Below, piece after piece: positions 1-49,037 of a DNA stretch of 64,000 nucleotides (its first letter is position 1; the number at the start of each line of letters is the position of its first letter). Position numbers and translations under genes: made by a program. Location: the NCBI GenBank assembly GCA_003152075.1, contig PLZG01000093.1, positions 15,445 to 79,444 of the forward strand, read 5' to 3'. The notes beneath the pieces are model-generated. The model saw nothing but the letters and a program-made list of their open reading frames with translations, made no database searches and had not been told where the DNA came from. The stretch is from a candidate division FCPU426 bacterium (GTDB lineage Bacteria > Oederibacteriota > Muellerivitia > Muellerivitales > Muellerivitaceae).

Positions 1-270
1 ATAATACTCGTCCTCGTGCATGGTCAAGACCACAACCGCCAAGTGGGGCCGGTCCTTGAAGACCTCCACGGCCACGCGGGGCCCGGGAATATCAGGAAGG
101 CTGATATCCAGCAAAAGCACGTCCAGGGGCATTTGGGCGGCGGCCTTGATGGTTTCCAGGCCCGTGCCCGTTTCCCCAACGACGATAATATCAGTTTCCT
201 TCTCAAGCAAAACCTTAAGGCCGCTGCGAAACACGGCGTGGTCGTCGGCGATCAGGACGCGGATAGACAT
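1..270 (-). CDS. NarL/FixJ-family response regulator, receiver domain only (C-terminal HTH lies beyond the window start; partial)
   Basis: Reverse translation from the ATG at 268-270 reads MSIRVLIADDHAVFRSGLKVLLEKETDIIVVGETGTGLETIKAAAQMPLDVLLLDISLPDIPGPRVAVEV..., a typical REC domain with acidic pocket. It sits immediately downstream of, and overlaps the stop of, the HisKA_3 kinase, which is the classic NarXL-type pairing. It runs off the window edge, so no ORF was called in the track. Confidence 0.7.
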   Translation of the reverse strand, partial: MSIRVLIADDHAVFRSGLKVLLEKETDIIVVGETGTGLETIKAAAQMPLDVLLLDISLPDIPGPRVAVEVFKDRPHLAVVVLTMHEDEYY

Positions 271-1850
271 GAACCCACCTCCTGTACCAGGGGTATTTGA
301 ATTCTTACCACCGTTCCCTTCCCGGGTTCGGACTCCACGATGCAGGTTCCACCCACCAACCCGGCCCGTTCCTTCATTCCGGTGATCCCTAGGAAATGGA
401 ATCCGCCTTGGTTGACGCCGGCCGTGTTGAAACCACGGCCGTTGTCCTCAACTAAAAGCGTCATGTTGTCCGGCTGGTAAATGATGACGATGCTGGCCCG
501 GGTGGCGGTCGCGTGTCTCACGACGTTGGTGACGGCTTCCTGGGCAATACGGTAAAAGGTGGTTTCCACCTGTCCTGGAAGCCTGGGGCGCCCGGGCGGC
601 CCCAGGTACTGATAGTCGATGCTGACCCCCGATTGCAGTGACATTTCCTCCGCGTAGCGGGCCAGCGCCGAATCCAGCCCGTAGTCGTCCAAGATGGAGG
701 GCCGCATGTTCCAAGCCAACCGGCGCACCTGATCGATCAGTTCCCGGAGTTTCCCTTCCAAGAGCTGGCACCGGCTTCGGGGTTTCGACCTATAAAGGCA
801 ATCCGATTGGAGGTTCAGAAGGATTGCCGAGAGGGATTGGCCCATTTGATCATGAAGTTCCCGGGAAATGCTCCGGCGTTCCTCCTCCTGAGCCCGAACG
901 ATTTTGTCCAATAAAGAAAGGCGACTTTTTTCCTTCTCCAGAATTTCCTGTCGGTACTTTTGAAGATTGGCGGTCATTTGGTTGAATGTGGCGGCCAAGC
1001 GCCCGATTTCGTCCTCATAAAACACTTCCGCTTTGGCGGATAATTCCCCCTCACTCACCGTTTGGGCGGCCTTGTCCAATAAATGGATGGGATAGGTCAA
1101 GAAGTGCGCCAGAACCCAAGCCAAGCCTGTTCCCACTACCGCGCAAAAAAGAAGAATCCAAATAACGGAACGACTCAAAACAGATAATTCCCCCACCACC
1201 GTTTGGTTCGCGAGCGCCAATTCTACTTGGCCCCCCCGGCTTCCCAGAATGGGATAGACCGCGTCGAACAAAAGACCTCCTTGAGTAGGGAAAACCCGCA
1301 GGAGACCCCCTTGCCCGACGGTAACAGAATCGGTCCCGCGAAGGTTTTCCGGAAAGGACTCGTTGAAGGTATCGCCTGCCACCCGGCCCTTTGAATTCCT
1401 GACCACGATATACCGAAGATCGGGGAAGATTTTCAAATAACGGGCTAACAGCTGGTCGAGGGACGACCGGGAGTCCATCGAAGGGGTTCGTTCCAGTTGG
1501 AGGGAAAGGGAATGGGCCAATTCAAGAGTCCGTTGTTCGAGGTTACGGTGAAGGATACGGGCCGTGATGGTTTGAGTTTGCCAAAGGGTTACTGTCCCGA
1601 ATAAAACTGCCACAAGGACCCCGATCCCCAATACCTTCCAAAAAATGGGGACGGACAAAAGCCTGCGAAAAAATCGATGCATTGGGCGGCTTTTACCGGA
1701 AGGAATGAAAAACGCGGTTAGGCGGGCCAAATCTGGAAAAAAAGCTTTGGTGCCGACCGGAAAATCGGATGCCGATAACTTCACTGGTGGGGCGGATGGT
1801 TTCATTTTCACCGGCTTTTTTGGTATTCGGTAAGCGAATGATTCATGCAA
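252..1850 (-). CDS. Sensor histidine kinase (2 TM, periplasmic sensor, HAMP, HisKA_3, HATPase_c)
   Basis: The translation contains ELHDQMGQSLSAILLNLQ (HisKA_3 H-box) and N/G1/G2 ATPase boxes (EAVTNVVRHA, DNGRGF, GLGITGMKERAGLVGG). Hydrophobic segments flank a periplasmic domain of about 150 aa. The true start may be the internal Met MHRFFRR at about 1682. Confidence 0.8.
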   Translation of the reverse strand: MHESFAYRIPKKPVKMKPSAPPVKLSASDFPVGTKAFFPDLARLTAFFIPSGKSRPMHRFFRRLLSVPIFWKVLGIGVLVAVLFGTVTLWQTQTITARILHRNLEQRTLELAHSLSLQLERTPSMDSRSSLDQLLARYLKIFPDLRYIVVRNSKGRVAGDTFNESFPENLRGTDSVTVGQGGLLRVFPTQGGLLFDAVYPILGSRGGQVELALANQTVVGELSVLSRSVIWILLFCAVVGTGLAWVLAHFLTYPIHLLDKAAQTVSEGELSAKAEVFYEDEIGRLAATFNQMTANLQKYRQEILEKEKSRLSLLDKIVRAQEEERRSISRELHDQMGQSLSAILLNLQSDCLYRSKPRSRCQLLEGKLRELIDQVRRLAWNMRPSILDDYGLDSALARYAEEMSLQSGVSIDYQYLGPPGRPRLPGQVETTFYRIAQEAVTNVVRHATATRASIVIIYQPDNMTLLVEDNGRGFNTAGVNQGGFHFLGITGMKERAGLVGGTCIVESEPGKGTVVRIQIPLVQEVGSCLSAS

Positions 1851-2218: not shown

Positions 2219-3487
2219 ATGATGAAAACCCTGAAGTGGCTGGCCTTAGGAATCGTTTTAACTCTGTTTTGTTCGCAGGGGGCAATGGCCGTACCGATGT
2301 TCGCGAGGATGTACAGTTACAATTGCACCATGTGCCACGATCCGGGTTATGGCCAATTGAATAAGTTCGGGTACAATTTCCGCGCGGCCGGTTACCGAAT
2401 CCCCGCTGACATAGGGAAGGACATGAACGGCGGGAAGTTCGACATGACCAATTACATCGCCGCCCGATATTCCGCCGGTGGCAGCCTTAAAACCACTTCT
2501 AACGCCAATGGTGCTCCCACACCCGACAACGCCAGTTTCACCTTGGGGGGTGCCAGCATCTTTCTCGGAGGGGGAATCAGCAAGAATTTTTTCTCCTACA
2601 GTGAATTGGGCTTGGGAAACGGAACCAACATTTTCTCGGGAACAGCCCCCAATTTAAACAACGCTAAGATTGGATTTGTCACCGGAAGCGAAAACCAATT
2701 CTTTACGGTGAGAATCGGTAAATTCGGCGCCGATGGTTTCGGCGGATCGGACAGAGGTCCAGTGGGAAACTCGACCATCTCTTCTGCGATAAAGCCCACC
2801 GGAACCGGCTTGGAGTTGGGATATACCTACCAGGATACCCGAATCACGTTGGGTTTCTTTGACGGGATTCAAAATCCTCAAGTCACCGGTCTCGTGACTA
2901 GCAATTCAAAAGCGGTTACTTCCAGCAGCGTCCAAGGCCCCACCGCCGACTCCAATAACTCGAAGGACATCCAGCTGTTCGTCAATCAATTCATCGGTGA
3001 TGACGGGCTGGCTGTGAACGCAGTTTATTACAATGGGTTCAACGCCTCGGTTGGCGCGACCGCCGCGGCGGGCGGAACCGGTGACGCGGTTGGCCAAGAG
3101 TACTTCAACACGGCCATCTTCATCTCTTCTCCCATCGTTAAGAAGCTGGGCATCAAGGTAGGCGCGGAAATGGGCGCGACCAATATAGGAATTTTCCCAA
3201 CCACCGGAATTGTCGGCCCCACTAACGGCGGCTTTTTCGGCGAATTGGATTACGCGATGGACGACCTTACCCCCTTGGTCTTCCGTTACGACTATACAAC
3301 AACCGACTTCAACACTTTGTACACGGACACGCAGAAATTCACCCTGGGTGCCCTTTTACCCTTCGTCGAACAGGTTTACATGAACCCAACCTTCGCTTTG
3401 ACGATGAACAACGCCGGGTTAGTCAACGGTGCAGATGCTTACAACAACATCTATACGTTTACTGATTCATTAGCCGTATTCTTTTAA
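2219..3487 (+). CDS. cyc2: Cyc2-like fused monohaem c-type cytochrome / outer-membrane beta-barrel porin
   Basis: Signal peptide (MMKTLKWLALGIVLTLFCSQGAMA). A single CxxCH (CTMCH) lies within 20 aa of the mature N-terminus. The remaining ~380 aa is G/T/N/Y/F-rich with alternating amphipathic strands and ends in an aromatic residue (..AVFF), which is typical of beta-barrel OMPs. The N-terminal motif is paralogous to ORF 47633..49012. Acidithiobacillus Cyc2 and Leptospirillum Cyt572 have this architecture. Confidence 0.6.
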   Translation: MMKTLKWLALGIVLTLFCSQGAMAVPMFARMYSYNCTMCHDPGYGQLNKFGYNFRAAGYRIPADIGKDMNGGKFDMTNYIAARYSAGGSLKTTSNANGAPTPDNASFTLGGASIFLGGGISKNFFSYSELGLGNGTNIFSGTAPNLNNAKIGFVTGSENQFFTVRIGKFGADGFGGSDRGPVGNSTISSAIKPTGTGLELGYTYQDTRITLGFFDGIQNPQVTGLVTSNSKAVTSSSVQGPTADSNNSKDIQLFVNQFIGDDGLAVNAVYYNGFNASVGATAAAGGTGDAVGQEYFNTAIFISSPIVKKLGIKVGAEMGATNIGIFPTTGIVGPTNGGFFGELDYAMDDLTPLVFRYDYTTTDFNTLYTDTQKFTLGALLPFVEQVYMNPTFALTMNNAGLVNGADAYNNIYTFTDSLAVFF

Positions 3488-3564
3488 GAAGAGGGCATAC
3501 GGTGAGCCACTATAAAAGTGGCCCACTAAAAAATCTTAGATTCAAACTAACCAAGGAGTCGTTT

Positions 3565-3957
3565 ATGAAAAATCATCTCAGAGAACATGCAGGATTCGCC
3601 GCGATATTCTTTTCGCTGGCCCTATTCCTCCTGGCCTTTTCTGTGGCCCGGAGCGAGGATTTGGCCGCCGGCAAGAAAATCTTCGAGGGAAAATGTGCCC
3701 AATGCCATGGCAAGGACGCCAAGGGCGTGGTCAAAATGGCCAAGGTTCTAAAAGTGGAACCTGTGCTGATTGACCTTACCCGTGACGAGGCGGTCAAGCT
3801 ATCCAATGCGGACAAGGTAAAAACCGTAACCGAAGGCAATAAAAAGATGCCGAAATACAAAGGAAAACTCACAGATGAACAGATTGGACAGGTAGTCCAA
3901 TATCTGGAATCATTGCAAGGGGCTGGAAAAAAAACTAATAAAACAAAAGCTCGATAA
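3565..3957 (+). CDS. Periplasmic monohaem class-I cytochrome c (paralogue 1 of 3)
   Basis: RBS AAGGAG precedes the ATG at 3565. Signal peptide is followed by CAQCHGKDAKG (CxxCH) and a downstream Met ligand (KKMPKY). It is about 60% identical to ORF 4247..4603. An intrinsic terminator follows. Confidence 0.85.
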   Translation: MKNHLREHAGFAAIFFSLALFLLAFSVARSEDLAAGKKIFEGKCAQCHGKDAKGVVKMAKVLKVEPVLIDLTRDEAVKLSNADKVKTVTEGNKKMPKYKGKLTDEQIGQVVQYLESLQGAGKKTNKTKAR

Positions 3958-4016
3958 GGGCGGAGAAAAGAAAAAATAATAGGGGTTCACTCATCTCTCT
4001 CCTTAAAGCTTCACGA

Positions 4017-4048
4017 AAAGGGTCGGCCCCAAACCGGCCCTTTTCTTA
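4017..4048 (+). terminator. Rho-independent terminator after cytochrome c paralogue 1
   Basis: aaaaGGGTCGGCCCCaaaCCGGCCCttttctt: a GC hairpin followed by a T-run. Confidence 0.6.
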
Positions 4049-4246
4049 ATCGGGAGGTCATTTTTAGCAAGTATTCCAACAGGAGCGGATCACCCCAAGG
4101 CCAGGAAAAAGGGGTTTTGTTTAGTGTCAAGGAAAAGGCGGAGATTTAATTCCACTTTTTCTTAGGTTAAATGGGCAGAGTCTTGAAAATCCATGGGCAT
4201 CAAGCGATGATGACCCAGATTTTGAAAAGACAAACAGGGAGGACTT

Positions 4247-4603
4247 ATGCGCTGGTTTTTATTACTGGTTGGCGGCTTGATTCTTATTGCAGGAAACAAT
4301 GTTTGGGGCGCGGAAACCGCTGATCCCGGCAAGAAGCTTTTCGAGTCCAAGTGCGCCCAGTGTCACGGGAAAGACGCAAAAGGCCAACCCAAGATGGCAC
4401 CCGTCCTCATGGTAGAGCCGGCATTGATCGACTTAACGAGGGCCGACGCAGCCAAACTTTCCTTTGCCGAAAAAGTCAAAATTGTGACCAACGGGAAAAA
4501 TAAAATGTTGAAGTTCAAGAAAAAACTGACGGACGAACAGATTCAACAAGTGGTTAAATACGTGGAATCACTTCAAGGAGTTAGTGCCGGAAAGAAAAAA
4601 TAA
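4247..4603 (+). CDS. Periplasmic monohaem cytochrome c (paralogue 2)
   Basis: Signal peptide, CAQCHGKDAKG, Met ligand (NKMLKF). RBS GGGAGG sits upstream and a terminator downstream. Confidence 0.85.
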   Translation: MRWFLLLVGGLILIAGNNVWGAETADPGKKLFESKCAQCHGKDAKGQPKMAPVLMVEPALIDLTRADAAKLSFAEKVKIVTNGKNKMLKFKKKLTDEQIQQVVKYVESLQGVSAGKKK

Positions 4604-4633
4604 TTTTTTCGCCAACCTCTTTCCATCCAACAG

Positions 4634-4666
4634 AAAGACCGGTCCCGGACCGGCTTTTTGTTTTTA
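4634..4666 (+). terminator. Rho-independent terminator after cytochrome c paralogue 2
   Basis: GACCGGTCCcGGACCGGC hairpin followed by TTTTTGTTTTT. Confidence 0.6.
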
Positions 4667-4836
4667 GCCAACCGTTTAAAATATTGTTTAGTTCGTCGTT
4701 TATATGTGCTGCGTCATATTGAACATCTGGTGGACATTTTAAAATTTCTTAACTTAGGCGGGGTTTCGACCCGTTTGATTTTAAACACAACGAGCGGAAA
4801 ATTTTATTCTGTTCGGCCATTATCAAGGAGGTTCGC

Positions 4837-5229
4837 GTGATGAATTTCAGGATAAAACACGCTTGTGTTTTTTCAGTTTTCACTCTCTTGTCTTTTTTAA
4901 TCCCCGCCCTTTCCCGGGCTCAGGGAAGCAACATGGAGTTTGGAAAAAAATATTTCGATGGGAAATGCGCCCGTTGCCATGGAAAAGACGGGGCAGGAAA
5001 CCCCAAGATGACCCAATTATTAAATACCGATTTGAAAAAAATAAATCTTCATCGAGACGAGATCCGCCATATGTCTGTCATCCAAATCGAGGCGATAATC
5101 GACAGCGGCAAGCATCGGATGCCGAAATACGGTGGAAAATTAACGGATTCACAAATCCATGATATAGCCTCCTACGTTAAATTTTTGATCAGAAACGAAG
5201 CCAAGAAGGAAGAAAAGACATCTAACTAA
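4837..5229 (+). CDS. Periplasmic monohaem cytochrome c (paralogue 3, more divergent)
   Basis: Signal peptide, CARCHGKDGAG, Met ligand (HRMPKY). It has its own AT-rich promoter region and RBS AAGGAGG. It is followed after 10 bp by the Rieske gene, so it is probably co-transcribed with the bc complex. Confidence 0.8.
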   Translation: MMNFRIKHACVFSVFTLLSFLIPALSRAQGSNMEFGKKYFDGKCARCHGKDGAGNPKMTQLLNTDLKKINLHRDEIRHMSVIQIEAIIDSGKHRMPKYGGKLTDSQIHDIASYVKFLIRNEAKKEEKTSN

Positions 5230-5239
5230 GGAGAGATTA

Positions 5240-5743
5240 ATGTGCCCGTCCGATAATAAACCGAATCAACCCGAAAACCCCCAACGCCGGACGTTTCTCA
5301 TCGCCCTCATCACGGCTATGGGTGGATTCATCAGCTTTGTTTTGGGCGGTTCCGGCCTTTTTTATTTCCTCTCCCCCGCCTGGCGGAGCAAAAAGGAAGA
5401 TTGGGTGGAAGTAGGTCCGGTGGACAGCGTAAAAGAGGGCGACCCGGTTAAACTGGATTACGTCAAACGCAAGATGGACGGCTGGAATGTTATCGAGAGC
5501 CCCAGTTCCGTATGGGTAGTCCAACAAAAAGGAGAGTGGGTTGCCTATGACCCCCACTGCACCCATTTGGGCTGTCCTTACCGCTGGGATGCTTCCAAAC
5601 AGGCTTTTCTCTGCCCCTGTCACGGTGGGGTTTTCACTAAAGATGGCAATGTAGTCTCCGGGCCCCCTCCCAAACCCCTGAATCGCTTCCCCGTGAAGGT
5701 CGAGGGCGGGACCATTTACGTCCTGCCGGAGGGGATCGCCTAA
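5240..5743 (+). CDS. Rieske [2Fe-2S] iron-sulfur subunit of a cytochrome bc/b6f-type complex
   Basis: N-terminal TM anchor. Rieske boxes CTHLGCP and CPCHGGVF. RBS AAGGAGAG. The stop overlaps the start of the cytochrome b gene (ATGA). Confidence 0.85.
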   Translation: MCPSDNKPNQPENPQRRTFLIALITAMGGFISFVLGGSGLFYFLSPAWRSKKEDWVEVGPVDSVKEGDPVKLDYVKRKMDGWNVIESPSSVWVVQQKGEWVAYDPHCTHLGCPYRWDASKQAFLCPCHGGVFTKDGNVVSGPPPKPLNRFPVKVEGGTIYVLPEGIA

Positions 5744-7374
5744 TGAAAACTATTCTCGATTGGCTCGACGAACGCACCGGCTGGCGCAAAATCAAGGAAG
5801 TCATCCTGGACCGGCATATCCCCAAGGGTGTGGACTGGCGTTACACCCTAGGAAGCGTCACTCTTTTCTTCTTCGTTCTACAAGTAGTCACCGGCATCCT
5901 TTTGGCCATGCATTACTCCCCCTCCCCCGATCATGCCTATGACTCGGTAAAGTACCTTTCGAAGGAAGTCCCAATGGGGGGCTTCTTGAGGAGTTTACAC
6001 AAATGGGGCGCCACAGGAATGGTGGTGACGGTGTTCCTGCATATGCTTCGGGTGTTTTTCATGGGGGCCTATAAGTATCCCCGGGAAGTCACATGGCTCT
6101 CCGGAATCCTTCTCTTTTTCTTTGTGATCGGTTTTGGGTTTACCGGTTATCTTCTCCCCTGGGACCAGAAAGCCTATTGGGCCACCACCGTGGGCGCCCA
6201 TATGGTGGAACAAGTTCCTTATTTTGGCGCTGGCCTGGCGAAAATCATGAAAGGCGGCCAGGATTTGGGCGCCGTCACCTTGGCGCGGTTTTATGCCATC
6301 CACGTGCTGGTTTTCCCCGCCTTGACTCTCCTCTTCATGGTTATCCATCTTTTCCTGGTGGTTTGGCACGGAATCTCCGCTCCACCGGAGCGCGAAACTC
6401 CTTCGACCGATCGCAGGGATCCGAACTGGAAAACCCGCCTTCAGGCCCGCTACCTGGAACTCAAGTCCCAGGGAAAATCTTTCTGGCCCTATATCATCTT
6501 TAAGGACACCGTGGCGGTTACCTTGGTCTTCCTCATTGTCCTAGGCGTAGCCCTGTGGAAAGGTGCGGAGCTGGAGGATTTGGCCAACCCCACCGACACT
6601 ACCTATAACCCCCGGCCCGAGTGGTATTTCCTTTCGGTATTCCAATTGCTGAAATATTTCCCCGGCAAACTGGAAGCTTTCGCCATCGTCCTGTTGCCGC
6701 TGATTGTCGTCACACTATTGTTCGCCCTCCCCTTCCTGGATAAAGGGCCCCGGAGGCACCCGGCCGACCGCAAATGGCTGGTGGCGGCCGGTTGGATGGC
6801 CGTATTGGGTTTAATCGTTTTGACAGTCCAAGGCGCCTACACGCCCTTGACCAATCCCGTCGGCGAAAAAAACCCAATGGTCATGGAAGGAAAGCGTCTT
6901 TACGGAGACCTCCACTGCGAGTATTGCCACACCTTGCACGGCCACGGAGGAACAGTTGGCCCGGTCCTGGATGAAGTCGGCATACGCCGCAACCAGGATT
7001 GGCTGGCCAACCACTTCCGAAACCCCAAAAAAGTAACGCCTGGAACCAAGATGCCCAACTTCAATCTTTTGGATGGCGAGGTGGAATCCCTGGTGGCTTA
7101 CATGAGCACCTTGGGGGCGGGAACATTCACGGCGAAGGCCCCAGGGCTCTTCGAGGAAAACTGCGCTACCTGTCATAAATTCCATGGGGTAGGCGAGGAA
7201 ATCGCTACCGATTTGACCCATATCGCGGGAGTTCGGGACGCCGATTACATCGCGGCTTATATCAAGGATCCTATCAAGTTGAATCCCGATGCCGCCATGC
7301 AGGGCTTTTCCGACCAATTGACCGCGGACCAGATTAAGGACTTGGCCAATTACCTGTACCAGCAGGGTAAATAA
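5743..7374 (+). CDS. Cytochrome b (b6 plus subunit-IV-like) with fused C-terminal dihaem cytochrome c domain
   Basis: Eight predicted TM helices with paired His ligands in helices B/D (..HYSP.., ..LHMLRVFF.., ..HVLVFPAL.., ..HLFLVVWHG). The C-terminal ~170 aa carries two CxxCH motifs (CEYCH, CATCH). This domain is paralogous to the stand-alone dihaem cytochrome 49136..49798. Confidence 0.85.
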   Translation: MKTILDWLDERTGWRKIKEVILDRHIPKGVDWRYTLGSVTLFFFVLQVVTGILLAMHYSPSPDHAYDSVKYLSKEVPMGGFLRSLHKWGATGMVVTVFLHMLRVFFMGAYKYPREVTWLSGILLFFFVIGFGFTGYLLPWDQKAYWATTVGAHMVEQVPYFGAGLAKIMKGGQDLGAVTLARFYAIHVLVFPALTLLFMVIHLFLVVWHGISAPPERETPSTDRRDPNWKTRLQARYLELKSQGKSFWPYIIFKDTVAVTLVFLIVLGVALWKGAELEDLANPTDTTYNPRPEWYFLSVFQLLKYFPGKLEAFAIVLLPLIVVTLLFALPFLDKGPRRHPADRKWLVAAGWMAVLGLIVLTVQGAYTPLTNPVGEKNPMVMEGKRLYGDLHCEYCHTLHGHGGTVGPVLDEVGIRRNQDWLANHFRNPKKVTPGTKMPNFNLLDGEVESLVAYMSTLGAGTFTAKAPGLFEENCATCHKFHGVGEEIATDLTHIAGVRDADYIAAYIKDPIKLNPDAAMQGFSDQLTADQIKDLANYLYQQGK

Positions 7375-7429
7375 ACCAGGCCGTTTTCAAAATTCAGCCC
7401 AAGAGATTAAATTGCCTTACAATGGGCTT

Positions 7430-8014
7430 ATGGGAAAACACCTTACCATCTTTTTGCTTGGCGCGGCCTTCATGGCCTGTATCCCACTTTCCTCTTTCGC
7501 CGGCCAGGGTGGCGACCCCGTCACCCTAACCTTCCAGGAAAAACAGGGACATTTCGATATCATTGGCCATTTTAGTGTCCAAGCCGATTCAAAAGTGGTT
7601 TGGGATACCCTTACCGATTTTGAAAATTATCCCCATTTCTCACATGAGTTGAAAAAAGTAAACGTAACCAATCCGTCCCCAAATCATCTAACCGCGGAAG
7701 AAATGGCGGAAAGCGGAGTGTTGTTTTTTACTCAAAAGGTTTATTTCACTTTAGACATCCATTTGGAACCTGAAAAATCTATCCTTTCGAAGGACACAGG
7801 CCATAAAAGTTTCGTTTCCTACCAAAGCGAATGGAATCTCGAACCCGGCAATGGCAGAAAAACCATGGAATTGACTTATCATTTATTAGCGGAAGGGCAC
7901 TTCGGTGGACCCGCCTTCATGGTCAACGACACTTTCAAAGGTGGCATCAAGAACTTCCTGGAATCCATGCGCAAGGAAATCCTGCGGCGTCAGGAGAATA
8001 AATTTCAGAAATAG
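7430..8014 (+). CDS. Secreted SRPBCC (polyketide-cyclase/Bet v1-like) superfamily protein, hypothetical
   Basis: Signal peptide; mixed alpha/beta ~170 aa mature domain. Clear paralogue of 57293..57943 (shared ..W..LTD[FY].[NH][FY]..F.. core). Fold assignment is tentative. Confidence 0.45.
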   Translation: MGKHLTIFLLGAAFMACIPLSSFAGQGGDPVTLTFQEKQGHFDIIGHFSVQADSKVVWDTLTDFENYPHFSHELKKVNVTNPSPNHLTAEEMAESGVLFFTQKVYFTLDIHLEPEKSILSKDTGHKSFVSYQSEWNLEPGNGRKTMELTYHLLAEGHFGGPAFMVNDTFKGGIKNFLESMRKEILRRQENKFQK

Positions 8015-12924: not shown

Positions 12925-13224
12925 TCAAAAAACCCGCGGGAAATAAACTTTTACATGGGCGACGTCGGGCATCAACAGGATCACCATAATGGCGAACAGA
13001 ACCAAGGGGAAGACGAAGATGATAATCACCACGGGCCCCTCCATTCGAAGACCCATATATTGGGCGACCACCAGTCCCGCCAGGACGAAAGCGACCCCAA
13101 AAATCACTAGGTTGTTCCACAAGGCCGGAAGGTGAAGTAACGCCTTTTCGACCGAGAAAAGCGCCAGGATAACCAAAAGGGTAAAAACCATCCCATGCTT
13201 CATGGAGACGGTTTTCGATTCCAT
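12925..13224 (-). CDS. Cytochrome c oxidase subunit IV (prokaryotic COX4 family), paralogue 2
   Basis: Three-TM small protein, paralogous to 14312..14614 (shared ..LHLP...NN..IF..AFV.AGLV..QYM.L..EG.. pattern). It is the last gene of the cox operon. Confidence 0.6.
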   Translation of the reverse strand: MESKTVSMKHGMVFTLLVILALFSVEKALLHLPALWNNLVIFGVAFVLAGLVVAQYMGLRMEGPVVIIIFVFPLVLFAIMVILLMPDVAHVKVYFPRVF

Positions 13225-13451
13225 TTTCCATCCTTTTAAAGCTGGTTTTAAAGGGCCTCTCCACCCCCAGGTTGAGGCCAAGCAACCACAGTATAAAAAC
13301 AGGGGAATAGGCCCAATATGACGCGGCTCATATAAGGGGGAACGGCAAATTTCACATTTAAGGGTTTTCGGGGGAAAGGCGGAACTAAAAGGAAAGAACG
13401 AGGATCGGCGAAAGAGAATTTTCAGGGTGGACGGGGTTTAAAAAATCTGGG

Positions 13452-13691
13452 TTATTCCTGATCCGACGGTAAATGACGGCGGACCCACCAGATCAAAGTT
13501 CCCGCCAAGACAAAAGGAACAGGCAAGAGAAACGCGACTGCCCACTGCAAACCATGCTTATAAGGTGTGGAATCCACGCACAAGGGACAAGCCCCCGCCA
13601 CCTTTGGCAGCAACAGCGCGATCATCCCTAAAGCGGGAAGGAGAGCGAGTTTAATTTTCCCGGTTTTTTTCAATTCAATCGTTGTTTTCAT
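13452..13691 (-). CDS. Small two-TM membrane protein with CPLC motif (possible Cu/haem assembly factor), hypothetical
   Basis: 79 aa. TM, CPLCVD, TM. Embedded between coxC2 and coxD2. Confidence 0.4.
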   Translation of the reverse strand: MKTTIELKKTGKIKLALLPALGMIALLLPKVAGACPLCVDSTPYKHGLQWAVAFLLPVPFVLAGTLIWWVRRHLPSDQE

Positions 13692-13707
13692 CAGATTCCA
13701 ATTTTCC

Positions 13708-14310
13708 TTAAATTAAATAGACCAAAAAGAAAAGAATGGGCCAAAGGCCGACCACGAAAAACCAATACATCCGGCAAAGCTCCACTCCCAGCGTGTTTTG
13801 GGCACTGTACTTCTCCTTCCATGCCTTATTCAAGACCCAAAGCAAGGCGATAAGGCCGCCCGTCACATGGACCGCGTGGATTCCCACCAGGCAATAGAAA
13901 AAACCGCCGAAGATGCTGGCGTGGACGGTGAGCCCGAAATGAAGAAGGCGGACCCATTCCGCCCCTTGGACAGCCAGGAAGATAAATCCCAAAACCGCCG
14001 TGGCTGTCAACAACCCCTTGAACAATTGGCTATTGGAGGCCTTGAGGGGTTTGAGGGCCAGAAAAAACGTGAGCCCGCTTAAAAGAAGGATCAATGTGTT
14101 CGCGGAGGTGACTTCCAGGGGGAGGCGAGGTTGGCCCGGTGGGGGCCAGGGCACGGGGCTGAAACGGAACATCACAAAGGAACTGATGAGCCCTGAGAAG
14201 AACATGATTTCGGCGATGATAAATAGGATGATTCCAAGCCTGGCTGGTTCCATGCGGCGATCGGAGGCTGGCCCGGCGGAAGGCCCCGAGCCGGAAACCG
14301 GCCCGTCCAT
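13708..14310 (-). CDS. Cytochrome c oxidase subunit III, paralogue 2
   Basis: Five or more TM segments. Subunit III signatures (..FF..GIHAVHVT.GLIALL..). The start was moved to an internal Met to avoid overlapping the upstream coxD. Confidence 0.75.
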   Translation of the reverse strand: MDGPVSGSGPSAGPASDRRMEPARLGIILFIIAEIMFFSGLISSFVMFRFSPVPWPPPGQPRLPLEVTSANTLILLLSGLTFFLALKPLKASNSQLFKGLLTATAVLGFIFLAVQGAEWVRLLHFGLTVHASIFGGFFYCLVGIHAVHVTGGLIALLWVLNKAWKEKYSAQNTLGVELCRMYWFFVVGLWPILFFLVYLI

Positions 14311-14311
14311 A

Positions 14312-14614
14312 TTAGAAGAACCTTCGAAGGAAATTGATCGAGAAGTGACAGACGTCGGGAATAAACAAGACAAGAAGGATGCCGAACAAGATGAAGGGGA
14401 TGATCATAATCCAATAGATGAGTTTTCCCTCCGATTTCAGGTCCATGTACTGGAAAAAGACCAGCCCAGCCATCACGAAGGCAATTGCGAAGATAGCAAC
14501 GTTGTTGGTCACGATGGGCAAATGGAGGAAAGTCACCCCTACCGCCGAAAGAGCCATCACCACAAGCACTGAAAATATCATCGTATGGTTATTGGAAGCC
14601 GTGGTTGAGTTCAT
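14312..14614 (-). CDS. Cytochrome c oxidase subunit IV, paralogue 1
   Basis: Three-TM 100-aa protein, paralogous to 12925..13224. Confidence 0.65.
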   Translation of the reverse strand: MNSTTASNNHTMIFSVLVVMALSAVGVTFLHLPIVTNNVAIFAIAFVMAGLVFFQYMDLKSEGKLIYWIMIIPFILFGILLVLFIPDVCHFSINFLRRFF

Positions 14615-14629
14615 TGATTCCTCCTGGGG

Positions 14630-15256
14630 TTAAGCTAAAAGATAAAGCATCGGGAACAGGAAAATCCAGACTACTTCAACGAAAGACCAGTAAATACCCG
14701 TAATGGCCACCCGGCCTTTCCAATTCCCCATCGATCCCGTTAAAGCCCTATTCAAGAGCAGGCCCAGAGCAACCAATCCACCCAGAATGTGGGTAGCGTG
14801 GATTCCTGTCATCAGGAAATAAAAGGACCAGAAACCACCGCTAGTGGGAAATTCACCATGAGCGAACTCAGCTGTGTACTCGAAAGCCTTAACGCCTAGA
14901 AAAAGCACACCCATGGCCATGGTCAGGACTAGGTACTTCTTGACGTTATCGTTGTTTTCCGCCCCTGCCGCACCAGAGGCTTTCATCATGAAAAAATTGC
15001 TGACGAGAAGAACCAACGAGTTAAGAGTGCCGGCGACCAGGTTCAGGTGTCGAGCCTCTTCGGACCACTCGGGATGAATCATGCGCATGAGGATGAAGGA
15101 ACCAAAGAGCCCCGCGAAAAGGACAATTTCGGAGGCGATCAGTGCCCAAATACCCAGCCGGCCCGCGGTCAATCCCGCCGGCGCCGAATTGTAACCTTCA
15201 GGACCCTCATTCTCGGGATAGTGGGGTGTCAATGGCAGGTTGGCGCTTTTATCCAT
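14630..15256 (-). CDS. Cytochrome c oxidase subunit III, paralogue 1
   Basis: Subunit III signatures (..FFMTGIHATHILGGLVAL..). Start set at MDKSANLP (ATG 15254-15256), just after the coxA stop. Confidence 0.8.
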   Translation of the reverse strand: MDKSANLPLTPHYPENEGPEGYNSAPAGLTAGRLGIWALIASEIVLFAGLFGSFILMRMIHPEWSEEARHLNLVAGTLNSLVLLVSNFFMMKASGAAGAENNDNVKKYLVLTMAMGVLFLGVKAFEYTAEFAHGEFPTSGGFWSFYFLMTGIHATHILGGLVALGLLLNRALTGSMGNWKGRVAITGIYWSFVEVVWIFLFPMLYLLA

Positions 15257-16943
15257 GGACCGTTTCTCCTTTGATGTTACTAGCTTGGGAATGCCAATCC
15301 TCGGATTCCCCGGGCTTGCTGTACTCGTAAGGACCACTCGTCACCACCGGAAGAACCGGTCCCCAGTTGCCATGGGGCGGGGGCGAATCGGCAAGCCATT
15401 CCAGGGTGTTGGATTGGTAGGGATTTTTCCCCGCTTTCGGACCGTGGTTCATGCTGAGGACGAGGTTCCAAAGGAAGACGGATTGCGAGGCAATCAGTGA
15501 AATGGCGCAAATCGTGGCGAATATATTCCAATTGGCGAACTGGTGGTACTGGGGATAAAAGGACGGATCAGCTATACGGCGGATCATGCCGCCGATACCC
15601 ACCCTGAATAAAGGCCAGAATGTGCCGTTGAAGAAGATGAAAGTAAGCGCCAAGTGCAACAGGCCCAGCTTCTCGTTGAGCTTGCGGCCGTACATCTTGG
15701 GGAACCAATAGTAAACCGCCGAAAAGCCCCCGAAGAAAACCGAGGGGAATAGGGTGTAGTGGAAGTGAGCCACCACGAAATAGGTGCCATGAAGGTAGAT
15801 ATCGACGGAGGCCGAACCCAAGAAGATGCCGGTCAATCCCCCGACCAGGAAGGTGGCAAGGAACCCTAGCATCCAAAGCATGGGCACCTCCAGGCGGATG
15901 GACCCGTGCCGAAGAGTGGCTAACATACAGAAAATGATGATGGCGAAGGGAATTGAAATGAGGATAGTGGTGATCGAGAAGGGCGTGGCCAGGATCGGGT
16001 TCAAGCCCGACAGGAACATATGATGGGCCCAAACGATGAAGCTCAGAAGGATGGCAGAAACCGTGCTCCACAGGATGAGTTTATAGCCAAAAATGGGCTT
16101 GCGGGTGAAGGTGGCCATTATGTCCAACCCCATCCCCAGGGCCGGGAAGAAAAGTACGTAAACCTCCGGATGGCCGAAGAACCAGAAAAGATGTTCCCAC
16201 AACATCGGCTCACCACCTTTGGCGGGCAGGAAGAAACCGGTGCCGAACATGTTGTCCATGATGAGCATAAAATCGCCAGCGATGAGCGGTCCCACCGAGA
16301 AAAAGAAAGTTACGGCGGAGGCTAGGAGAAACCAAACAGTCATGGGAATACGGGAATAGGTCATGCCCTTCGCGCGAAGGGTAATGGCCGTAACCAGGTA
16401 GTTCAAGCCGCCCAGGCTCGAGGAGAAAAAGGCCATAGCAAGAGCAAGCAGCCACAGGCACGCCCCCCACTTGACACCGGCGAATTCGGAGCTGGCGGAC
16501 AAGGGCGGATAACCTACCCAGCCTCCGGCCACCGGACCGCCCGGGACGAAAAAGGATGCAACCAATAACACGGCTCCGGCGAAAGTTAACCAGAAAGAAG
16601 CCATGTTCAGCTTCGGAAAAGCCATATCCCGCGCACCGATCATCAAGGGAATAAAAAAATTGGAGGGAAATGCCGACAAGAAAGGCATTCCCACGAAGAA
16701 GATCATAATGGTACCGTGCAAGGTGATGATGGCGTTGAACTTGTCCGGCGAAACCAGCCCAAAGAAAGGCGCCGGGACGTTGGGAAATGCCACTTCCCAA
16801 CGGATCAGGTAGGCCATGAACCCGCCCAAACAGGCCATGATAGTGGAGAGCAAAAGAAACTGCTTGCCGATCATCTTATGGTCGGTCGAAAAAATATAGT
16901 GGCTGATGAAACTCTGCTTGTGTTCGTGGGCGTCTTGGCTCAT
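15249..16943 (-). CDS. ctaD: Cytochrome c oxidase subunit I (haem-copper oxidase, A-family)
   Basis: 564 aa, 12 TM. Conserved WFFGHPEVY, the HH pair and other haem a / CuB ligand motifs. The start overlaps the coxB stop (ATGA). Confidence 0.95.
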   Translation of the reverse strand: MSQDAHEHKQSFISHYIFSTDHKMIGKQFLLLSTIMACLGGFMAYLIRWEVAFPNVPAPFFGLVSPDKFNAIITLHGTIMIFFVGMPFLSAFPSNFFIPLMIGARDMAFPKLNMASFWLTFAGAVLLVASFFVPGGPVAGGWVGYPPLSASSEFAGVKWGACLWLLALAMAFFSSSLGGLNYLVTAITLRAKGMTYSRIPMTVWFLLASAVTFFFSVGPLIAGDFMLIMDNMFGTGFFLPAKGGEPMLWEHLFWFFGHPEVYVLFFPALGMGLDIMATFTRKPIFGYKLILWSTVSAILLSFIVWAHHMFLSGLNPILATPFSITTILISIPFAIIIFCMLATLRHGSIRLEVPMLWMLGFLATFLVGGLTGIFLGSASVDIYLHGTYFVVAHFHYTLFPSVFFGGFSAVYYWFPKMYGRKLNEKLGLLHLALTFIFFNGTFWPLFRVGIGGMIRRIADPSFYPQYHQFANWNIFATICAISLIASQSVFLWNLVLSMNHGPKAGKNPYQSNTLEWLADSPPPHGNWGPVLPVVTSGPYEYSKPGESEDWHSQASNIKGETVHG

Positions 16944-17626
16944 TGGGCTCCTCCATGTTCTTCTTTATCTTTTGCGGCAAGCCAATCATCAAAAGTTTTT
17001 TGGTCGTCCACCTGCAAAACTCCTGTCATACGGGTATGGCCGAAACCACAGATTTCGTCGCAAACCAAATGAAAAGTTCCCACTTGGTTTGTGTCAAACC
17101 AGCCATTGATCAGCCGAAGGGGCATGACATCCTGCTTCAAGCGCACCTCGGGCAGGAAAAAATCATGAATGACATCCAGGGAAGTCATGATGATGTGGAT
17201 TTTCTTACCGACCGGCACATGCAATTCGCGGTAGGAGGAAATCGCCGCAGGAGTATCGAACTTACCATCCTTATCGGGATAAAAGAAAGTCCAGTCAAAC
17301 TGCTTGGCTTGCACCTTTACCGTAATATCACAGGGCGGCAGGTCTTCTTTAACATCAGCCCAAGTCTTGCCTCCCCGGAAGTCGAGGAACAGATCAATTC
17401 CCAGGATGATGACGGAAAAAACGATGATCCATTGGATTTGGACCCAAGTATCACCCGTCTCATACTTAGCGGTTGTCCCCTTCTTTTGGCGGTATCTGAC
17501 CACCAAGAAAACAAGATAACCTTCCATTACAACGAAGAAGAACCCAGTGATGTAATAAATCAGTTTTAGCATATTGTCGATATCAGGAGCGAATGACGAG
17601 AGTGACAGGGGCAGGGCATCAAGCAT
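16940..17626 (-). CDS. ctaC: Cytochrome c oxidase subunit II (CuA, no fused cytochrome c)
   Basis: Two N-terminal TM helices. Cupredoxin domain with CuA motif H...CDEICGFGHTRM (C-x3-C-G-x2-H-x2-M). First gene of the operon coxB-coxA-coxC-coxD-coxC'-orf-coxD'. Confidence 0.9.
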   Translation of the reverse strand: MLDALPLSLSSFAPDIDNMLKLIYYITGFFFVVMEGYLVFLVVRYRQKKGTTAKYETGDTWVQIQWIIVFSVIILGIDLFLDFRGGKTWADVKEDLPPCDITVKVQAKQFDWTFFYPDKDGKFDTPAAISSYRELHVPVGKKIHIIMTSLDVIHDFFLPEVRLKQDVMPLRLINGWFDTNQVGTFHLVCDEICGFGHTRMTGVLQVDDQKTFDDWLAAKDKEEHGGAQ

Positions 17627-43025: not shown

Positions 43026-43089
43026 CGGACACCATCAAAGTTGCTTGGCTTTGTCCGTCCCACCCCGCTATGGCGTCCACGCCATAGCG
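43024..43089 (+). terminator. Two hairpins downstream of plsC, including the perfect palindrome CGCTATGGCG-tcca-CGCCATAGCG
   Basis: GACGGACAC...GTCCGTC (43024-43059) and the 10-bp perfect stem at 43066-43089. No strong T-run, so this is a weak terminator or a protein-binding site. Confidence 0.35.
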
Positions 43090-43212
43090 CCCAAACCCCA
43101 TTTCTGTTTTCCTCCCCCTTCTTCCATTCCCAAAAATGCTTTTTCAAAGCTTTTTTCATTGGCACTTCCCTTGCTTTAACCAATGACGACTGTCCAAAGA
43201 CCCCGCGCCTTG

Positions 43213-43232
43213 TATATGACATCTGTCATATA
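43213..43232. promoter_or_regulatory. Perfect 20-bp palindrome TATATGAC-atct-GTCATATA about 67 bp upstream of the cupredoxin operon
   Basis: 8-N4-8 inverted repeat with TGAC-N4-GTCA core. It is the best-conserved instance of the motif found upstream of both RIC genes and pirin. Confidence 0.5.
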
Positions 43233-43298
43233 GAGATAAATGAAGCGGGGATATCTTTCTGGCAGCCGAACTCAGTTTTTAATAAAAGGAGATTTCCA

Positions 43299-43997
43299 AT
43301 GAAGCTTAAAAAAAGTTTAATAAAAGCCGGAAGCAAAAAAACTCTTCGGACTTTATTCGGCGAGCTGTCCATCGGATTGGGGCTGAGCCTCTTCCTGGCC
43401 TCTTTCGCTTTCGCTGGGGAAGGTGCCACAGTATCCGGAAACATCCAAGTGAAGAAAGCCTACGTGGAAACCACCGGGGCCAAGAGCGACAAGGACGTGG
43501 TGGTTTACCTGGTGTCGGCTGAGAAAGGCGCTTCAGCGGCCCCCGTCGAACACGCCAAAATGAACCAAAAAAACCTCGTTTTCGTACCTCACGTTCTGGC
43601 AGTTCAAAAGGGCACCACCGTCGATTTCCTCAACGAGGACGCCGTCAACCATAACGTCTCTTCCCCCGCCGCCTGCTGTTCCTTCGACCTGGGCCAATGG
43701 GGCAAGGGAGTGACAAAAAGCTATAAGTTCGACTCGACGGGCGTGGCTCCCCTCCTTTGCAGCCTGCATCCAGAAATGGCCGCCTCGGTAGTGGTTGTCG
43801 ACACCCCCTATTACACGACGGCCTCCCTTATCACCAACAACGCGGAAAAAAAGCAATCGGCCAAGTACTCCATCAAGGGCGTTCCAGCGGGTGATTACAC
43901 CTTGAAGGTATGGAATGGCAAGTTGGTAGCCGCCGATCAAAAGGTGACCGTCACCGCGACCGGCGCCAAGGCTGATATCGACATCCACAAGAAGTAA
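43299..43997 (+). CDS. Periplasmic type-1 (blue) copper cupredoxin with C-terminal carboxypeptidase-regulatory-like (Ig-like) domain
   Basis: RBS AAAGGAG 7 nt before the ATG. Signal peptide. T1Cu ligand set: His (..NEDAVNHNV..) then C-x2-H-x2-M (CSLHPEM, amicyanin/pseudoazurin-like spacing). The C-terminus has a GDYTLKVWNG beta-sandwich motif. Confidence 0.6.
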   Translation: MKLKKSLIKAGSKKTLRTLFGELSIGLGLSLFLASFAFAGEGATVSGNIQVKKAYVETTGAKSDKDVVVYLVSAEKGASAAPVEHAKMNQKNLVFVPHVLAVQKGTTVDFLNEDAVNHNVSSPAACCSFDLGQWGKGVTKSYKFDSTGVAPLLCSLHPEMAASVVVVDTPYYTTASLITNNAEKKQSAKYSIKGVPAGDYTLKVWNGKLVAADQKVTVTATGAKADIDIHKK

Positions 43998-44024
43998 TCG
44001 GGAAAACCGTAAAGGAGAGCGGCC

Positions 44025-44564
44025 ATGGACTTCACGAATAAAGGCAAATGGATTTCGGCGGTGCTGGTGGTGGTGGCAGGGCTGACCCTGCCGGCCTTCA
44101 CCACGCCGGCCGCTCCCAAACCCGAGCGCCGCGACTTCAGCATCGTGGCCCGCAAGTACGCCTACGACCCCCCGATCATCAAGGTCAACCAGGGGGACGA
44201 GGTGCACGTAAAATTCGCTTCTCGGGACGTGACCCACGGATTTTTCATGGAAGGCTACGATGTCGAAGCCCTTTCCGAGGCCGGCAAATCCACCATCCTC
44301 TTCCGGCACCCTTCGATGACGGGTAACTTCACCCCCGCCGACGAGATCATCTTCACTGCCGATAAGCGCGGTAAATTTCGTTATCGCTGTTCCATGACTT
44401 GCGGCTATATGCACCCCTTCATGTTGGGAGTAATGATCGTGCAGCCCAATTCCCTTTTCGGCCAGGCCCTGGGGCTCATGACCGGAATCCTGCTGGCTGG
44501 CTTCATCCTGGTTTGGCCCGCGGGTAAGATCACCCCGAAAGCGCCGGAAGGAGCCCGCTCATGA
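44025..44564 (+). CDS. Membrane-anchored stand-alone CuA-type cupredoxin (COX2-like copper centre, no haem)
   Basis: N-terminal TM. Cupredoxin domain with His (VTHGF) and CSMTCGYMHPFM, which matches the binuclear CuA signature C-x3-C-G-x2-H-x2-M exactly. C-terminal TM. The stop overlaps the next start (ATGA). Confidence 0.55.
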   Translation: MDFTNKGKWISAVLVVVAGLTLPAFTTPAAPKPERRDFSIVARKYAYDPPIIKVNQGDEVHVKFASRDVTHGFFMEGYDVEALSEAGKSTILFRHPSMTGNFTPADEIIFTADKRGKFRYRCSMTCGYMHPFMLGVMIVQPNSLFGQALGLMTGILLAGFILVWPAGKITPKAPEGARS

Positions 44565-45028: not shown

Positions 45029-45038
45029 GAGTGAAACC

Positions 45039-46568: not shown

Positions 46569-46583
46569 AAAGGGAGGATCAAC

Positions 46584-47552: not shown

Positions 47553-47632
47553 TAGAATCTCGTCGGTAACCGGGCGCGGGTGGCGCGCTAATTAAAGCTG
47601 AACAGTAAATTTGTAACCTTGGGAGGGTGTAA

Positions 47633-49012: not shown

Positions 49013-49037
49013 TCTCTCTTTCAATTTTTCAGGAGAG

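Follow-up and report, generated by a model that had tools for sequence, protein, structure and literature searches.

A Cyc2-like haem-porin gene clustered with small cytochromes c and a Rieske/cytochrome b complex in a candidate division FCPU426 bacterium: a possible path for extracellular electrons

Can a single gene cluster account for the whole route that electrons might take between the outside of a cell and its quinone pool? The question is raised by a locus at positions 2219–7374 of a 64,000-nucleotide stretch of DNA (hereafter the window; positions 15,445 to 79,444 of contig PLZG01000093.1, assembly GCA_003152075.1) from a candidate division FCPU426 bacterium, in which a gene for a Cyc2-like fused cytochrome-porin (the haem-porin) is followed by genes for three small cytochromes c, a Rieske protein, and a cytochrome b fused to a dihaem cytochrome c. 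Genomes and metagenomes are searched for iron-oxidising bacteria mainly with Cyc2 as the genetic marker, and the path from Cyc2 to the inner membrane has so far been a model drawn from genes that lie scattered in the organisms studied; here they form one conserved cluster. We favour the reading that the locus encodes a complete electron path between cell exterior and quinone pool, most likely for Fe(II) oxidation, and would give that reading an even chance. An initial annotation, made from the sequence without database searches, had called six open reading frames (ORFs) here, and all six are present at the positions it gave and on the same strand (Table 1).

The haem-porin and its relation to Cyc2

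Membership of the Cyc2 family has been defined by a signal peptide, one CxxCH, at least 365 residues and a 16-strand porin, along with the motif AxPxFAR[Q/K][T/Y] five residues upstream of the haem site and PxL four residues downstream of it; the [Q/K][T/Y] after FAR served as a hard filter for the published Cyc2 tree (PMC8406198). The haem-porin, which finds no family match in Pfam or NCBIfam, has the length (422 amino acids, aa) and, as read from the sequence, the signal peptide, namely a hydrophobic segment at residues 7–28 with AMA at its end, before VPMFAR. The N-terminal order is then VPMFARMY, SYN and CTMCH, the sole CxxCH of the protein (residue 36), so that the AxPxFAR core is present as A-V-P-M-F-A-R with the published spacing of five residues (MYSYN) between FAR and the haem site. 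These positions are kept in its relatives: P26, F28, A29, R30, C36, C39 and H40 do not vary among 29 aligned homologues, which bears out the conservation of the haem site in orthologues on which the initial annotation had made its proposal depend, and 41 of 41 motif-bearing matches have one CxxCH only. The relatives are themselves nameless; a word-indexed search of 5.8 billion proteins returned 46, none with a protein name, and the cluster members of ten family representatives are all named 'hypothetical protein'.

The barrel predicted for this protein also held up. An AlphaFold2 model computed on the homologue alignment (predicted local distance difference test, pLDDT, 74; predicted template modelling score, pTM, 0.73) has 16 beta strands after a short helical N-terminal part. 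Searched against the PDB with Foldseek, it matched 16-strand general and specific porins at E-values of 1e–9 to 1e–11, among them OprP (2o4v) and OprO (4rjw), the structures reported closest to Cyc2 (Keffer et al. 2021, PMC8406198). A profile search of PDB sequences with the haem-porin family gave no match.

Both flanks of the haem site deviate from the published motif. After FAR it has Met-Tyr, not [Q/K][T/Y], which puts it outside the published filter; Met stands at this place in 31 of the 41 close homologues, and Lys-Tyr in distant members of the family (Ignavibacteriota and others). Downstream, PxL is absent at +4, where CH-DPGY-GQL offers a G-x-L displaced by one residue. The displaced motif is G-x-L in 28 close homologues and A-x-L in 3; PxL at +4 occurs in eight distant members of the family, and also in all 112 homologues of a second haem-porin copy in the window. 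Since the close clade fails the published filter, surveys based on the Cyc2 motif would miss it.

The second copy, which had been claimed as a second Cyc2-like gene within the 64 kb, does carry the canonical motif (Table 1), and every sequence feature in the Cyc2 definition is found in it and in its 112 motif-bearing homologues. Over 93–96% of its length it is 32–41% identical to genes of Ralstonia, Caballeronia, Paraburkholderia, Ideonella, Acidiphilium and an Acidithiobacillus ferrooxidans replicon, the last of these matches sitting on a plasmid; Burkholderia and Ralstonia are genera rich in Cyc2 homologues (Keffer et al., PMC8406198). To the same Ralstonia gene the first copy can be aligned at its N-terminus only (E = 3e–4). 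Compared as families with hhalign, the first copy and the second, canonical-motif copy match at 98.8% probability (E = 7.5e–17, 354 columns). The two window proteins themselves are about 20% identical in pairwise alignment, significantly so at the N-terminus only, and since accepted Cyc2 clusters are 17–23% identical to one another (PMC8406198), this lies within the range between accepted clusters. A full hidden Markov model scan of 1.84 billion representatives found 3,736 clusters related to the haem-porin, and the close clade is a single 50% cluster within them.

These comparisons, of sequence and of a predicted model, support the haem-porin as a fused cytochrome-porin homologous to the Cyc2 family, and we place it in a divergent branch of the Cyc2 superfamily and not among strict Cyc2 proteins. 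As such a branch, the gene answers to its first description as Cyc2-like by its motif, single haem site, 16-strand porin model and profile–profile match. It would be expected to incorporate haem and to lie in the outer membrane.

Small cytochromes c and the Rieske/cytochrome b complex

Each of the three small cytochromes matches Cytochrome_CBB3/Cytochrom_C (E-values of 1e–12 to 1e–14), with one CxxCH and one N-terminal hydrophobic segment apiece, and C65, C68, H69 and M116 are invariant in an alignment of small cytochromes c. They have the predicted marks of the class-I monohaem type: secreted, about 100 aa, with an N-terminal CxxCH and a distal Met. Copy 1, whose mechanical ORF start is a GTG at 3502, likely begins with the ATG at 3565 behind AAGGAG; it has its CxxCH at residue 44 and the conserved Met, and shares 77% identity and the same MKNHLRE start with the sole cytochrome c of its counterpart in L001 (L numbers denote genome loci used in the comparisons below).

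The initial annotation had described the three as recently duplicated, with paralogues 1 and 2 about 60% identical. The figure is right (61%, in a range of 58–61% for the proteins), while the recency is contradicted on three counts. Genes 1 and 2 share 62.5% DNA identity; copy 3 is 34–39% identical to copies 1 and 2 (up to 39% to copy 1), and in the tree branches outside all orthologues of both; and in a repeat search the cytochrome c genes showed no duplicated flanks and 72% similarity confined to the coding regions, a result that speaks against recent tandem duplication. Seven close relatives have one cytochrome c between the haem-porin and Rieske genes, or two in the case of L012. We read copy 1 as the orthologue of the single cytochrome c of the relatives and copy 2 as a lineage-specific paralogue, whereas copy 3 may have been recruited from elsewhere; the expansion appears specific to this genome, and not recent.

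A promoter and a terminator had also been assigned to each of the three genes. Because a terminator scan of the whole window was at chance (15 against 11.3 ± 3.3 expected), the two hairpins that follow copies 1 and 2 were folded individually. The one after copy 1 reaches –20 kcal/mol (z = –2.5); the one after copy 2, which was also in the terminator scan, reaches –18.9 kcal/mol (z = –4.0), and 0 of 200 shuffles fold as well. Terminators of their own can thus be kept for copies 1 and 2 and not for copy 3, whose stop is 10 bp from the Rieske start and which is probably co-transcribed with the Rieske gene. The promoters fared worse: a sigma-70 promoter scan gave 7 sites against 6.5 ± 3.1 expected, that is, chance level, and was rejected as a basis for separate promoters per cytochrome gene. 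Rfam found no RNA family in the window. Taken together, hairpins and spacings suggest three likely transcription units: the Cyc2-like gene with copy 1; copy 2 on its own; and copy 3 with the Rieske gene, the cytochrome b–c gene and the gene after it, for an SRPBCC protein.

The Rieske and cytochrome b–dihaem c fusion complex that had been annotated downstream of the cytochromes c is confirmed by domains and motifs. The Rieske protein, with the Rieske subunits of b6f and bc1 as its best NCBIfam matches, has a twin-arginine signal (RRTFL at 16), one membrane anchor, and the cluster boxes CTHLGC at 107 and CPCHG at 125. Its partner matches Cytochrome_B (1.2e–50), Cytochrom_B_C (4e–11) and two cytochrome c domains in Pfam, and falls below the cut-off of all the curated NCBIfam models concerned (cytochrome b6, QcrB, ExtP). 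The haem b ligands are H86, H100, H187 and H202, at the 13- and 14-residue spacings of the b6 type, and PEWY is at 292; haem c has two sites, CEYCH (392) and CATCH (474), with a candidate Met ligand after each. Residue 35, which by comparison with cytochrome b6 we take to be the position of the haem ci cysteine, is Thr (RYTLG), and a b6f-like complex with haem ci was rejected on this ground.

The fusion is not the uncommon arrangement it had been thought to be. A search with it gave 7,399 matches, and nearly all of the best 120 of these (90% identity clusters, reaching down to 43% identity) share the same Pfam set in a protein of 530–590 aa, in records labelled Deltaproteobacteria, Elusimicrobia, Binataceae and others. 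The free-standing paralogue of its c-domain, annotated at 49136, is real: this membrane-anchored dihaem cytochrome c is 49% identical over 202 aa to the C-terminal approximately 200 residues of the fusion, last membrane helix included.

Conserved gene order and the direction of electron flow

We searched 61 genome loci encoding haem-porin relatives with the window proteins by tblastn, and counted as informative those with at least 4 kb of flank (n = 53). The order haem-porin, cytochrome c, Rieske, cytochrome b–c occurs in all seven close relatives with enough flank (L001–L006, L012), where cytochrome b–c orthologues 79–89% identical adjoin the Cyc2-like genes. Identity of the haem-porin is 70–73% at the closest loci, from soil or co-assembly metagenome-assembled genomes (MAGs), and 59–62% at loci from MAGs labelled 'candidate division FCPU426', one of them from bog, whose cytochrome b is 79–82% identical. 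With FCPU426 as the nearest named genomes, a Leptospirillum or Nitrospirota source, considered on account of Cyt572 and the fused cytochrome b, was rejected. The same order recurs in Ignavibacteriota/Bacteroidota MAGs (L008–L011, L013, L022, L059), in which ORF reading places a monohaem cytochrome of 115–125 aa in between the haem-porin and Rieske/cytochrome b; it is inverted in Blastocatellia-type Acidobacteriota (L045, L049, L057), and in other Acidobacteriota (L024, L041, L061) a nine-haem cytochrome follows cytochrome b. In these last loci cytochrome b stands after the Cyc2-like gene without a c fusion, and the cytochrome of about 424 aa that bears the nine CxxCH lies at L024 13493–14767, L041 6293–7567 and L061 5100–6368.

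Rieske and cytochrome b genes were both within 6 kb of the haem-porin in 23 of the 53 informative loci (on the same strand in 21 of the 23), and a small cytochrome c was detectable within 3 kb in 27 of all 61. Chance adjacency would be of the order of a percent, a rough estimate from the few complexes in a genome of several megabases and not a computed control. Because the gene order is conserved across several phyla, the link of the haem-porin to the small cytochromes c and the Rieske/cytochrome b complex looks specific, with better support than the initial annotation could offer.

Sampling was also done in reverse, from nine further members of the cytochrome b–c fusion family (L063–L071). 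Directly upstream of the fusion lie a cytochrome c and a Cyc2 with the canonical motif in L064 and L065 (cytochrome b 80% and 74% identical), and a Cyc2-like gene with the variant IPAWANKY in L068 (57%). In L063 (74%) and L066 (51%) the neighbours, within 3–6 kb, are instead an MtrB/PioB porin and an MtrA-like multihaem cytochrome; modules that combine these two with NrfD/4Fe-4S proteins occupy L063 1–6557 and L066 903–5385 and 11374–14498. L070 has a porin-like protein between multihaem cytochromes, L071 a multihaem cytochrome and L069 a haem-less porin-like barrel near the fusion, and L067 shows no visible outer-membrane partner. Among close relatives, then, the bc complex appears to keep an outer-membrane conduit as neighbour even where the type of conduit differs.

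Gene order in a relative also bears on a second cytochrome locus of the window, some 40 kb away, which includes the canonical Cyc2 (Table 1). In L012, homologues of that locus set in 2.8 kb beyond the cytochrome b gene (L012 17468–21252) and comprise those of both cupredoxins, the rubrerythrin, the NapH-like protein and the CoxII-like cupredoxin-cytochrome c, so that the loci 40 kb apart in the window form one block there. The two cytochrome loci are probably one functional unit.

In the path that we propose, the divergent Cyc2-family haem-porin would exchange electrons with soluble extracellular redox species, secreted His/Met class-I cytochromes c (one conserved, two extra here) would shuttle them through the periplasm, and the two-polypeptide Rieske/cytochrome b6–dihaem c complex would join the cytochromes c to quinone. 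Fe(II) would reduce the outer-membrane haem, and the cytochrome c pool would then split the electrons into two routes, one downhill to the CuA aa3-type oxidase encoded 5.5 kb away, with a yield of energy, and one uphill through the bc complex, reversed at the cost of proton-motive force, to reduced quinone and NAD(P)H. Rieske proteins and His/Met monohaem class-I cytochromes are usually high-potential, whereas the multihaem chains of known metal reducers are low-potential. The make-up of this chain therefore suggests high potential, which fits Fe(II) oxidation or else a reduction confined to acceptors of high potential, for example soluble Fe(III) at low pH. The identity and domains of the components, the conserved haem site, the porin fold and the cross-phylum linkage are shown here, and we infer iron as substrate and Fe(II) oxidation with a reversed bc complex as direction by analogy: the parts match the iron-oxidiser model, in which Cyc2 passes electrons to a periplasmic cytochrome c and this to an oxidase or, in reverse, to bc1 or alternative complex III (ACIII) (PMC5566968; PMC8790237), and all biochemically tested Cyc2-family proteins oxidise Fe(II) (PMC8406198). 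It is on account of this match and of these tested members that Fe(II) oxidation with split flow is favoured; the complete CuA site of the oxidase lends the iron reading further support.

Several points weigh against this reading, first among them that neither flow direction nor substrate is fixed by sequence. The haem-porin has the altered residues before and after its haem site described above, and its model is of moderate confidence (pLDDT 74), with the cytochrome part as the weakest region. A-family oxidases are, to our knowledge, not the usual oxidase of microaerophilic neutrophilic iron oxidisers. No carbon-fixation gene (no RuBisCO, no ATP-citrate lyase) occurs within the 64 kb, leaving lithoautotrophy without support here, and the view of complex III and ACIII in this genome extends over one 64-kb window. 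Finally, Keffer et al. regard the function of divergent Cyc2 homologues as uncertain (PMC8406198).

The alternative that survives best, possible if somewhat unlikely, has the chain run outward under anoxic conditions, from quinol through the bc complex, the cytochromes c and the haem-porin to an acceptor outside the cell, for example humic quinones or Fe(III) in soluble or chelated form. Forward operation is thermodynamically normal for a bc complex, and the relatives come from peat, bog and soil metagenomes, habitats where Fe(III) and humic acceptors are common; the lack of autotrophy genes in the window points the same way. The usual high potential of a Rieske plus monohaem His/Met chain would, however, restrict such a flow to high-potential acceptors, and a CuA cytochrome c oxidase is encoded close by. 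The MtrB/PioB porin-cytochromes and multihaem cytochromes that adjoin homologues of the cytochrome b–c fusion are bidirectional in other organisms, and for anaerobic Fe(III) reduction by A. ferrooxidans a path via the quinone pool, bc1, cytochrome c, rusticyanin and Cyc2 has been proposed (PMC8790237), but wherever a Cyc2-family protein has been tested it was assayed as an Fe(II) oxidase (PMC8406198).

Distinctly unlikely, in our judgement, is that the Rieske/cytochrome b–c proteins and small cytochromes are an ordinary complex III feeding the aa3 oxidase, with the Cyc2-like protein tapping the same pool and no uphill role. A CuA oxidase does need a quinol:cytochrome c oxidoreductase, and no other is seen in the 64 kb; the cytochrome b–dihaem c architecture is widespread, being shared by at least 120 clusters; and L067 is a case with no outer-membrane partner. 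Against this stand the gene order with a Cyc2-like gene kept across at least three phyla, and the conduit neighbour that close relatives retain through changes of conduit type. In addition, L065 has a second Rieske/cytochrome b (14278–17311), without c fusion and beside a bd-like oxidase gene, so that the conduit-linked complex is not the only one in that relative. The initial annotation had itself cautioned that the complex might simply be housekeeping; the caution is weakened by L065 and not settled for the window's own genome. Weakest of all, and very improbable, is the proposal that the haem-porin handles another extracellular or periplasmic redox substrate (for example Mn(II), sulfur species, reduced humics or a mineral surface that acts like an electrode) or bears a sensing or protective haem. 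In its favour, the close clade is a divergent branch, one 50% cluster among about 3,700, has its motif altered next to the haem and belongs with homologues of acknowledged uncertain function (PMC8406198), and the locus has histidine kinase, hemerythrin and GGDEF genes on its flanks. There is, however, no positive evidence for any alternative substrate, and linkage this tight to cytochromes c and a respiratory complex points to bulk electron flow and not to a sensor.

Returning to a conduit coupled to the quinone pool, we tentatively suggest that the clade's Rieske/cytochrome b6–dihaem c proteins are a specialised extracellular-electron complex III with an interchangeable outer-membrane partner, the whole forming a portable module with the small cytochrome c. 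The partner could be a divergent Cyc2-like protein, a canonical Cyc2 or an MtrB/PioB-type porin-cytochrome, and the module would have spread over FCPU426-related bacteria, Ignavibacteriota/Bacteroidota, Acidobacteriota and delta-proteobacterial lineages. If this is true, FCPU426 and many soil and peat lineages are unrecognised iron-cycling organisms, and a motif-divergent clade of Cyc2-like proteins escapes current marker-gene screens. The cluster supplies testable partner proteins for Cyc2-type oxidases, hints that one subclass of bc complexes is reserved for the exchange of electrons with the exterior, and offers a first clue to the physiology of a candidate phylum that is uncultured and common in peat and soil.

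Neighbouring genes and comparison with known systems

Table 1. Features of the window discussed in the text (positions within the 64,000 nucleotides)
Feature	Position	Strand	Details
Sensor histidine kinase (HAMP, HisKA_3, HATPase_c)	252..1850	-	Pfam, NCBIfam; transcribed divergently from Cyc2-like gene
Cyc2-like fused monohaem cytochrome-porin	2219..3487	+	422 aa; C-terminal residue Phe (...LAVFF)
Monohaem class-I cytochrome c, copy 1	3565..3957	+	Pfam Cytochrome_CBB3 1.6e-13
Terminator-like hairpin after copy 1	4015..4045	+	12-bp stem, A-tract and U-tract flanks
Monohaem class-I cytochrome c, copy 2	4247..4603	+	Pfam 1.9e-14
Terminator-like hairpin after copy 2	4629..4662	+	followed by UUUUUGUUUUU
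Monohaem class-I cytochrome c, copy 3	4837..5229	+	Pfam 2.8e-12
Rieske [2Fe-2S] subunit	5240..5743	+	Pfam Rieske 4.9e-15
Cytochrome b6-like + subunit IV-like + C-terminal dihaem c	5743..7374	+	one 543-aa polypeptide
Secreted SRPBCC/START-fold protein (Polyketide_cyc)	7412..8014	+	Pfam 7.7e-14
A-family (aa3-type) cytochrome c oxidase operon	12925..17626	-	5.5 kb from locus
Second locus	43041..49798	+	two cupredoxins, rubrerythrin, NapH-like Fe-S membrane protein, CoxII-like cupredoxin-cytochrome c, canonical Cyc2, dihaem c
Second haem-porin, canonical Cyc2	47633..49012	+	ALPTFARQT-GMS-CAACH-TVY-PEL
Free-standing membrane-anchored dihaem cytochrome c	49136..49798	+	

The sensor histidine kinase upstream is a candidate regulator of the locus; in L007 the same kinase (60% identity) adjoins a Cyc2-like gene. 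Downstream, the SRPBCC gene starts 37 nt after cytochrome b, across a gap that does not fold and has no hairpin, and homologues (33–43% identical) stand beside the module in L001, L002, L004 and L006. The N-terminus of its product carries a hydrophobic stretch of the kind seen in signal peptides, and the protein may be an accessory that binds lipid or quinone. There is a second SRPBCC/START-fold (Polyketide_cyc) gene at 57293–57943.

The oxidase operon comprises CoxII, CoxI, two CoxIII-like genes, a small ORF and a subunit IV-like gene, with Pfam matches to COX1 (1e–132), COX2 and, twice, COX3, and CtaD/CoxB as best NCBIfam matches. CoxII has the full CuA ligand pattern (H...CDEICGFGHTRM), which marks a cytochrome c oxidase and not a quinol oxidase, and it probably takes electrons from the same cytochrome c pool. 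The A-type oxidase proposed about 5 kb away as the downhill branch is in place with its CuA site; the functional link is one that we infer. Next to the operon, an AurF-like diiron (ferritin-like) gene (12004–12837, minus strand) is 83–86% identical to genes beside the Cyc2-like gene in L005 and L012.

In make-up the second locus resembles a rus-operon-like set that has no catalytic oxidase subunit I. Its CoxII-like protein (46584–47552) contains CTAVCGDCHFHM, with a CuA-type Cys/His/Met spacing in which the usual Glu is Ala; the same stretch contains a CxxCH (CGDCH), and a C-terminal cytochrome c domain (CVTCH) comes after it. By its sequence this may be a copper site, a haem site or both. Hemerythrin domains occur in the products of three genes of the window (8375–8941, 21463–22206 and 50710–51444), two of them of the ScdA/RIC type that repairs iron centres; with a Crp/FNR-type regulator (20560–21486) and a rubrerythrin (44561–45028) they suggest life at oxic–anoxic interfaces with iron or oxidative stress. 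Two paralogous NMO (nitronate-monooxygenase-like) proteins of about 485 aa are encoded on the minus strand at 18027–19478 and 40735–42210, one near each cytochrome locus, and genes for pyruvate:ferredoxin oxidoreductase (24219–27869), a membrane H+-pyrophosphatase (28010–30343) and a GTP-dependent phosphoenolpyruvate carboxykinase (61440–63299) are likewise on the minus strand.

Among described complexes, the window's Rieske/cytochrome b proteins resemble the b6 type (b6f and the Firmicute or heliobacterial b6c) in H-x13-H, H-x14-H, PEWY and the Rieske boxes, and resemble systems with dihaem c subunits (actinobacterial QcrC, epsilonproteobacterial c1) in having a dihaem c as electron exit, these comparison families being drawn in part from the NCBIfam match lists. 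They differ from b6-type complexes in uniting b6, subunit IV and dihaem c in one polypeptide, and in Thr35 in place of the haem ci Cys. At the outer end of the path, the MtrAB, MtoAB and PioAB conduits occupy the same genomic position beside close cytochrome b–c homologues (L063, L066), which suggests that MtrB/PioB conduits are equivalent to the haem-porin there, although they are non-homologous and consist of a separate 26-strand-type porin and a multihaem cytochrome, as against the single monohaem fusion here. The Cyc2 proteins proper (A. ferrooxidans Cyc2, Mariprofundus Cyc2 PV-1, Leptospirillum Cyt572; PMC8406198) share with the haem-porin the signal peptide, the N-terminal CxxCH, the PxFAR spacing, a size of about 420 aa, the predicted 16-strand OprP/OprO-like barrel, and a cytochrome part that is well conserved next to a barrel poorly conserved in sequence; those that have been characterised lack its FAR-Met, its shifted G/A-x-L and its genetic linkage to a bc complex.

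As a gene cluster, the locus had been said to mirror the uphill arrangement of acidophilic iron oxidisers, a likeness that does not survive comparison. In A. ferrooxidans the rus operon unites cyc2 with the genes for the oxidase and rusticyanin, and bc1 has its own pet operon, together with a dihaem c4; in Leptospirillum the corresponding genes are not clustered (PMC10654088). The types of component in rus and petI are the same as here (an outer-membrane monohaem cytochrome, c-type carriers, a CuA aa3 oxidase, a bc complex, and cupredoxins, which here are in the second locus), but in the window the Cyc2-like gene shares its cluster with the bc complex while the oxidase stands apart, the carriers are monohaem class-I cytochromes, and the cytochrome b is b6-like and fused to a dihaem c. 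A limited literature search, which is no proof of novelty, returned no paper linking FCPU426 with Cyc2 and none describing Cyc2–bc synteny. The nearest described analogue is in Gallionellaceae KS, whose mto operon precedes Cytc1-Cytc2-Cytbc (He et al. 2017, PMC5566968). The logic is that of the locus, with a conduit first, then small cytochromes c of the periplasm (two in KS), then a b-type cytochrome of the inner membrane that has a dihaem c fused to it. In KS, however, the conduit is a decahaem MtoA with an MtoB porin, and the protein at the inner end contains a cytochrome b561 domain and has no Rieske partner (PMC5566968), whereas the window encodes at this place a true Rieske/cytochrome b6 complex, in which PEWY and the four His ligands are present.

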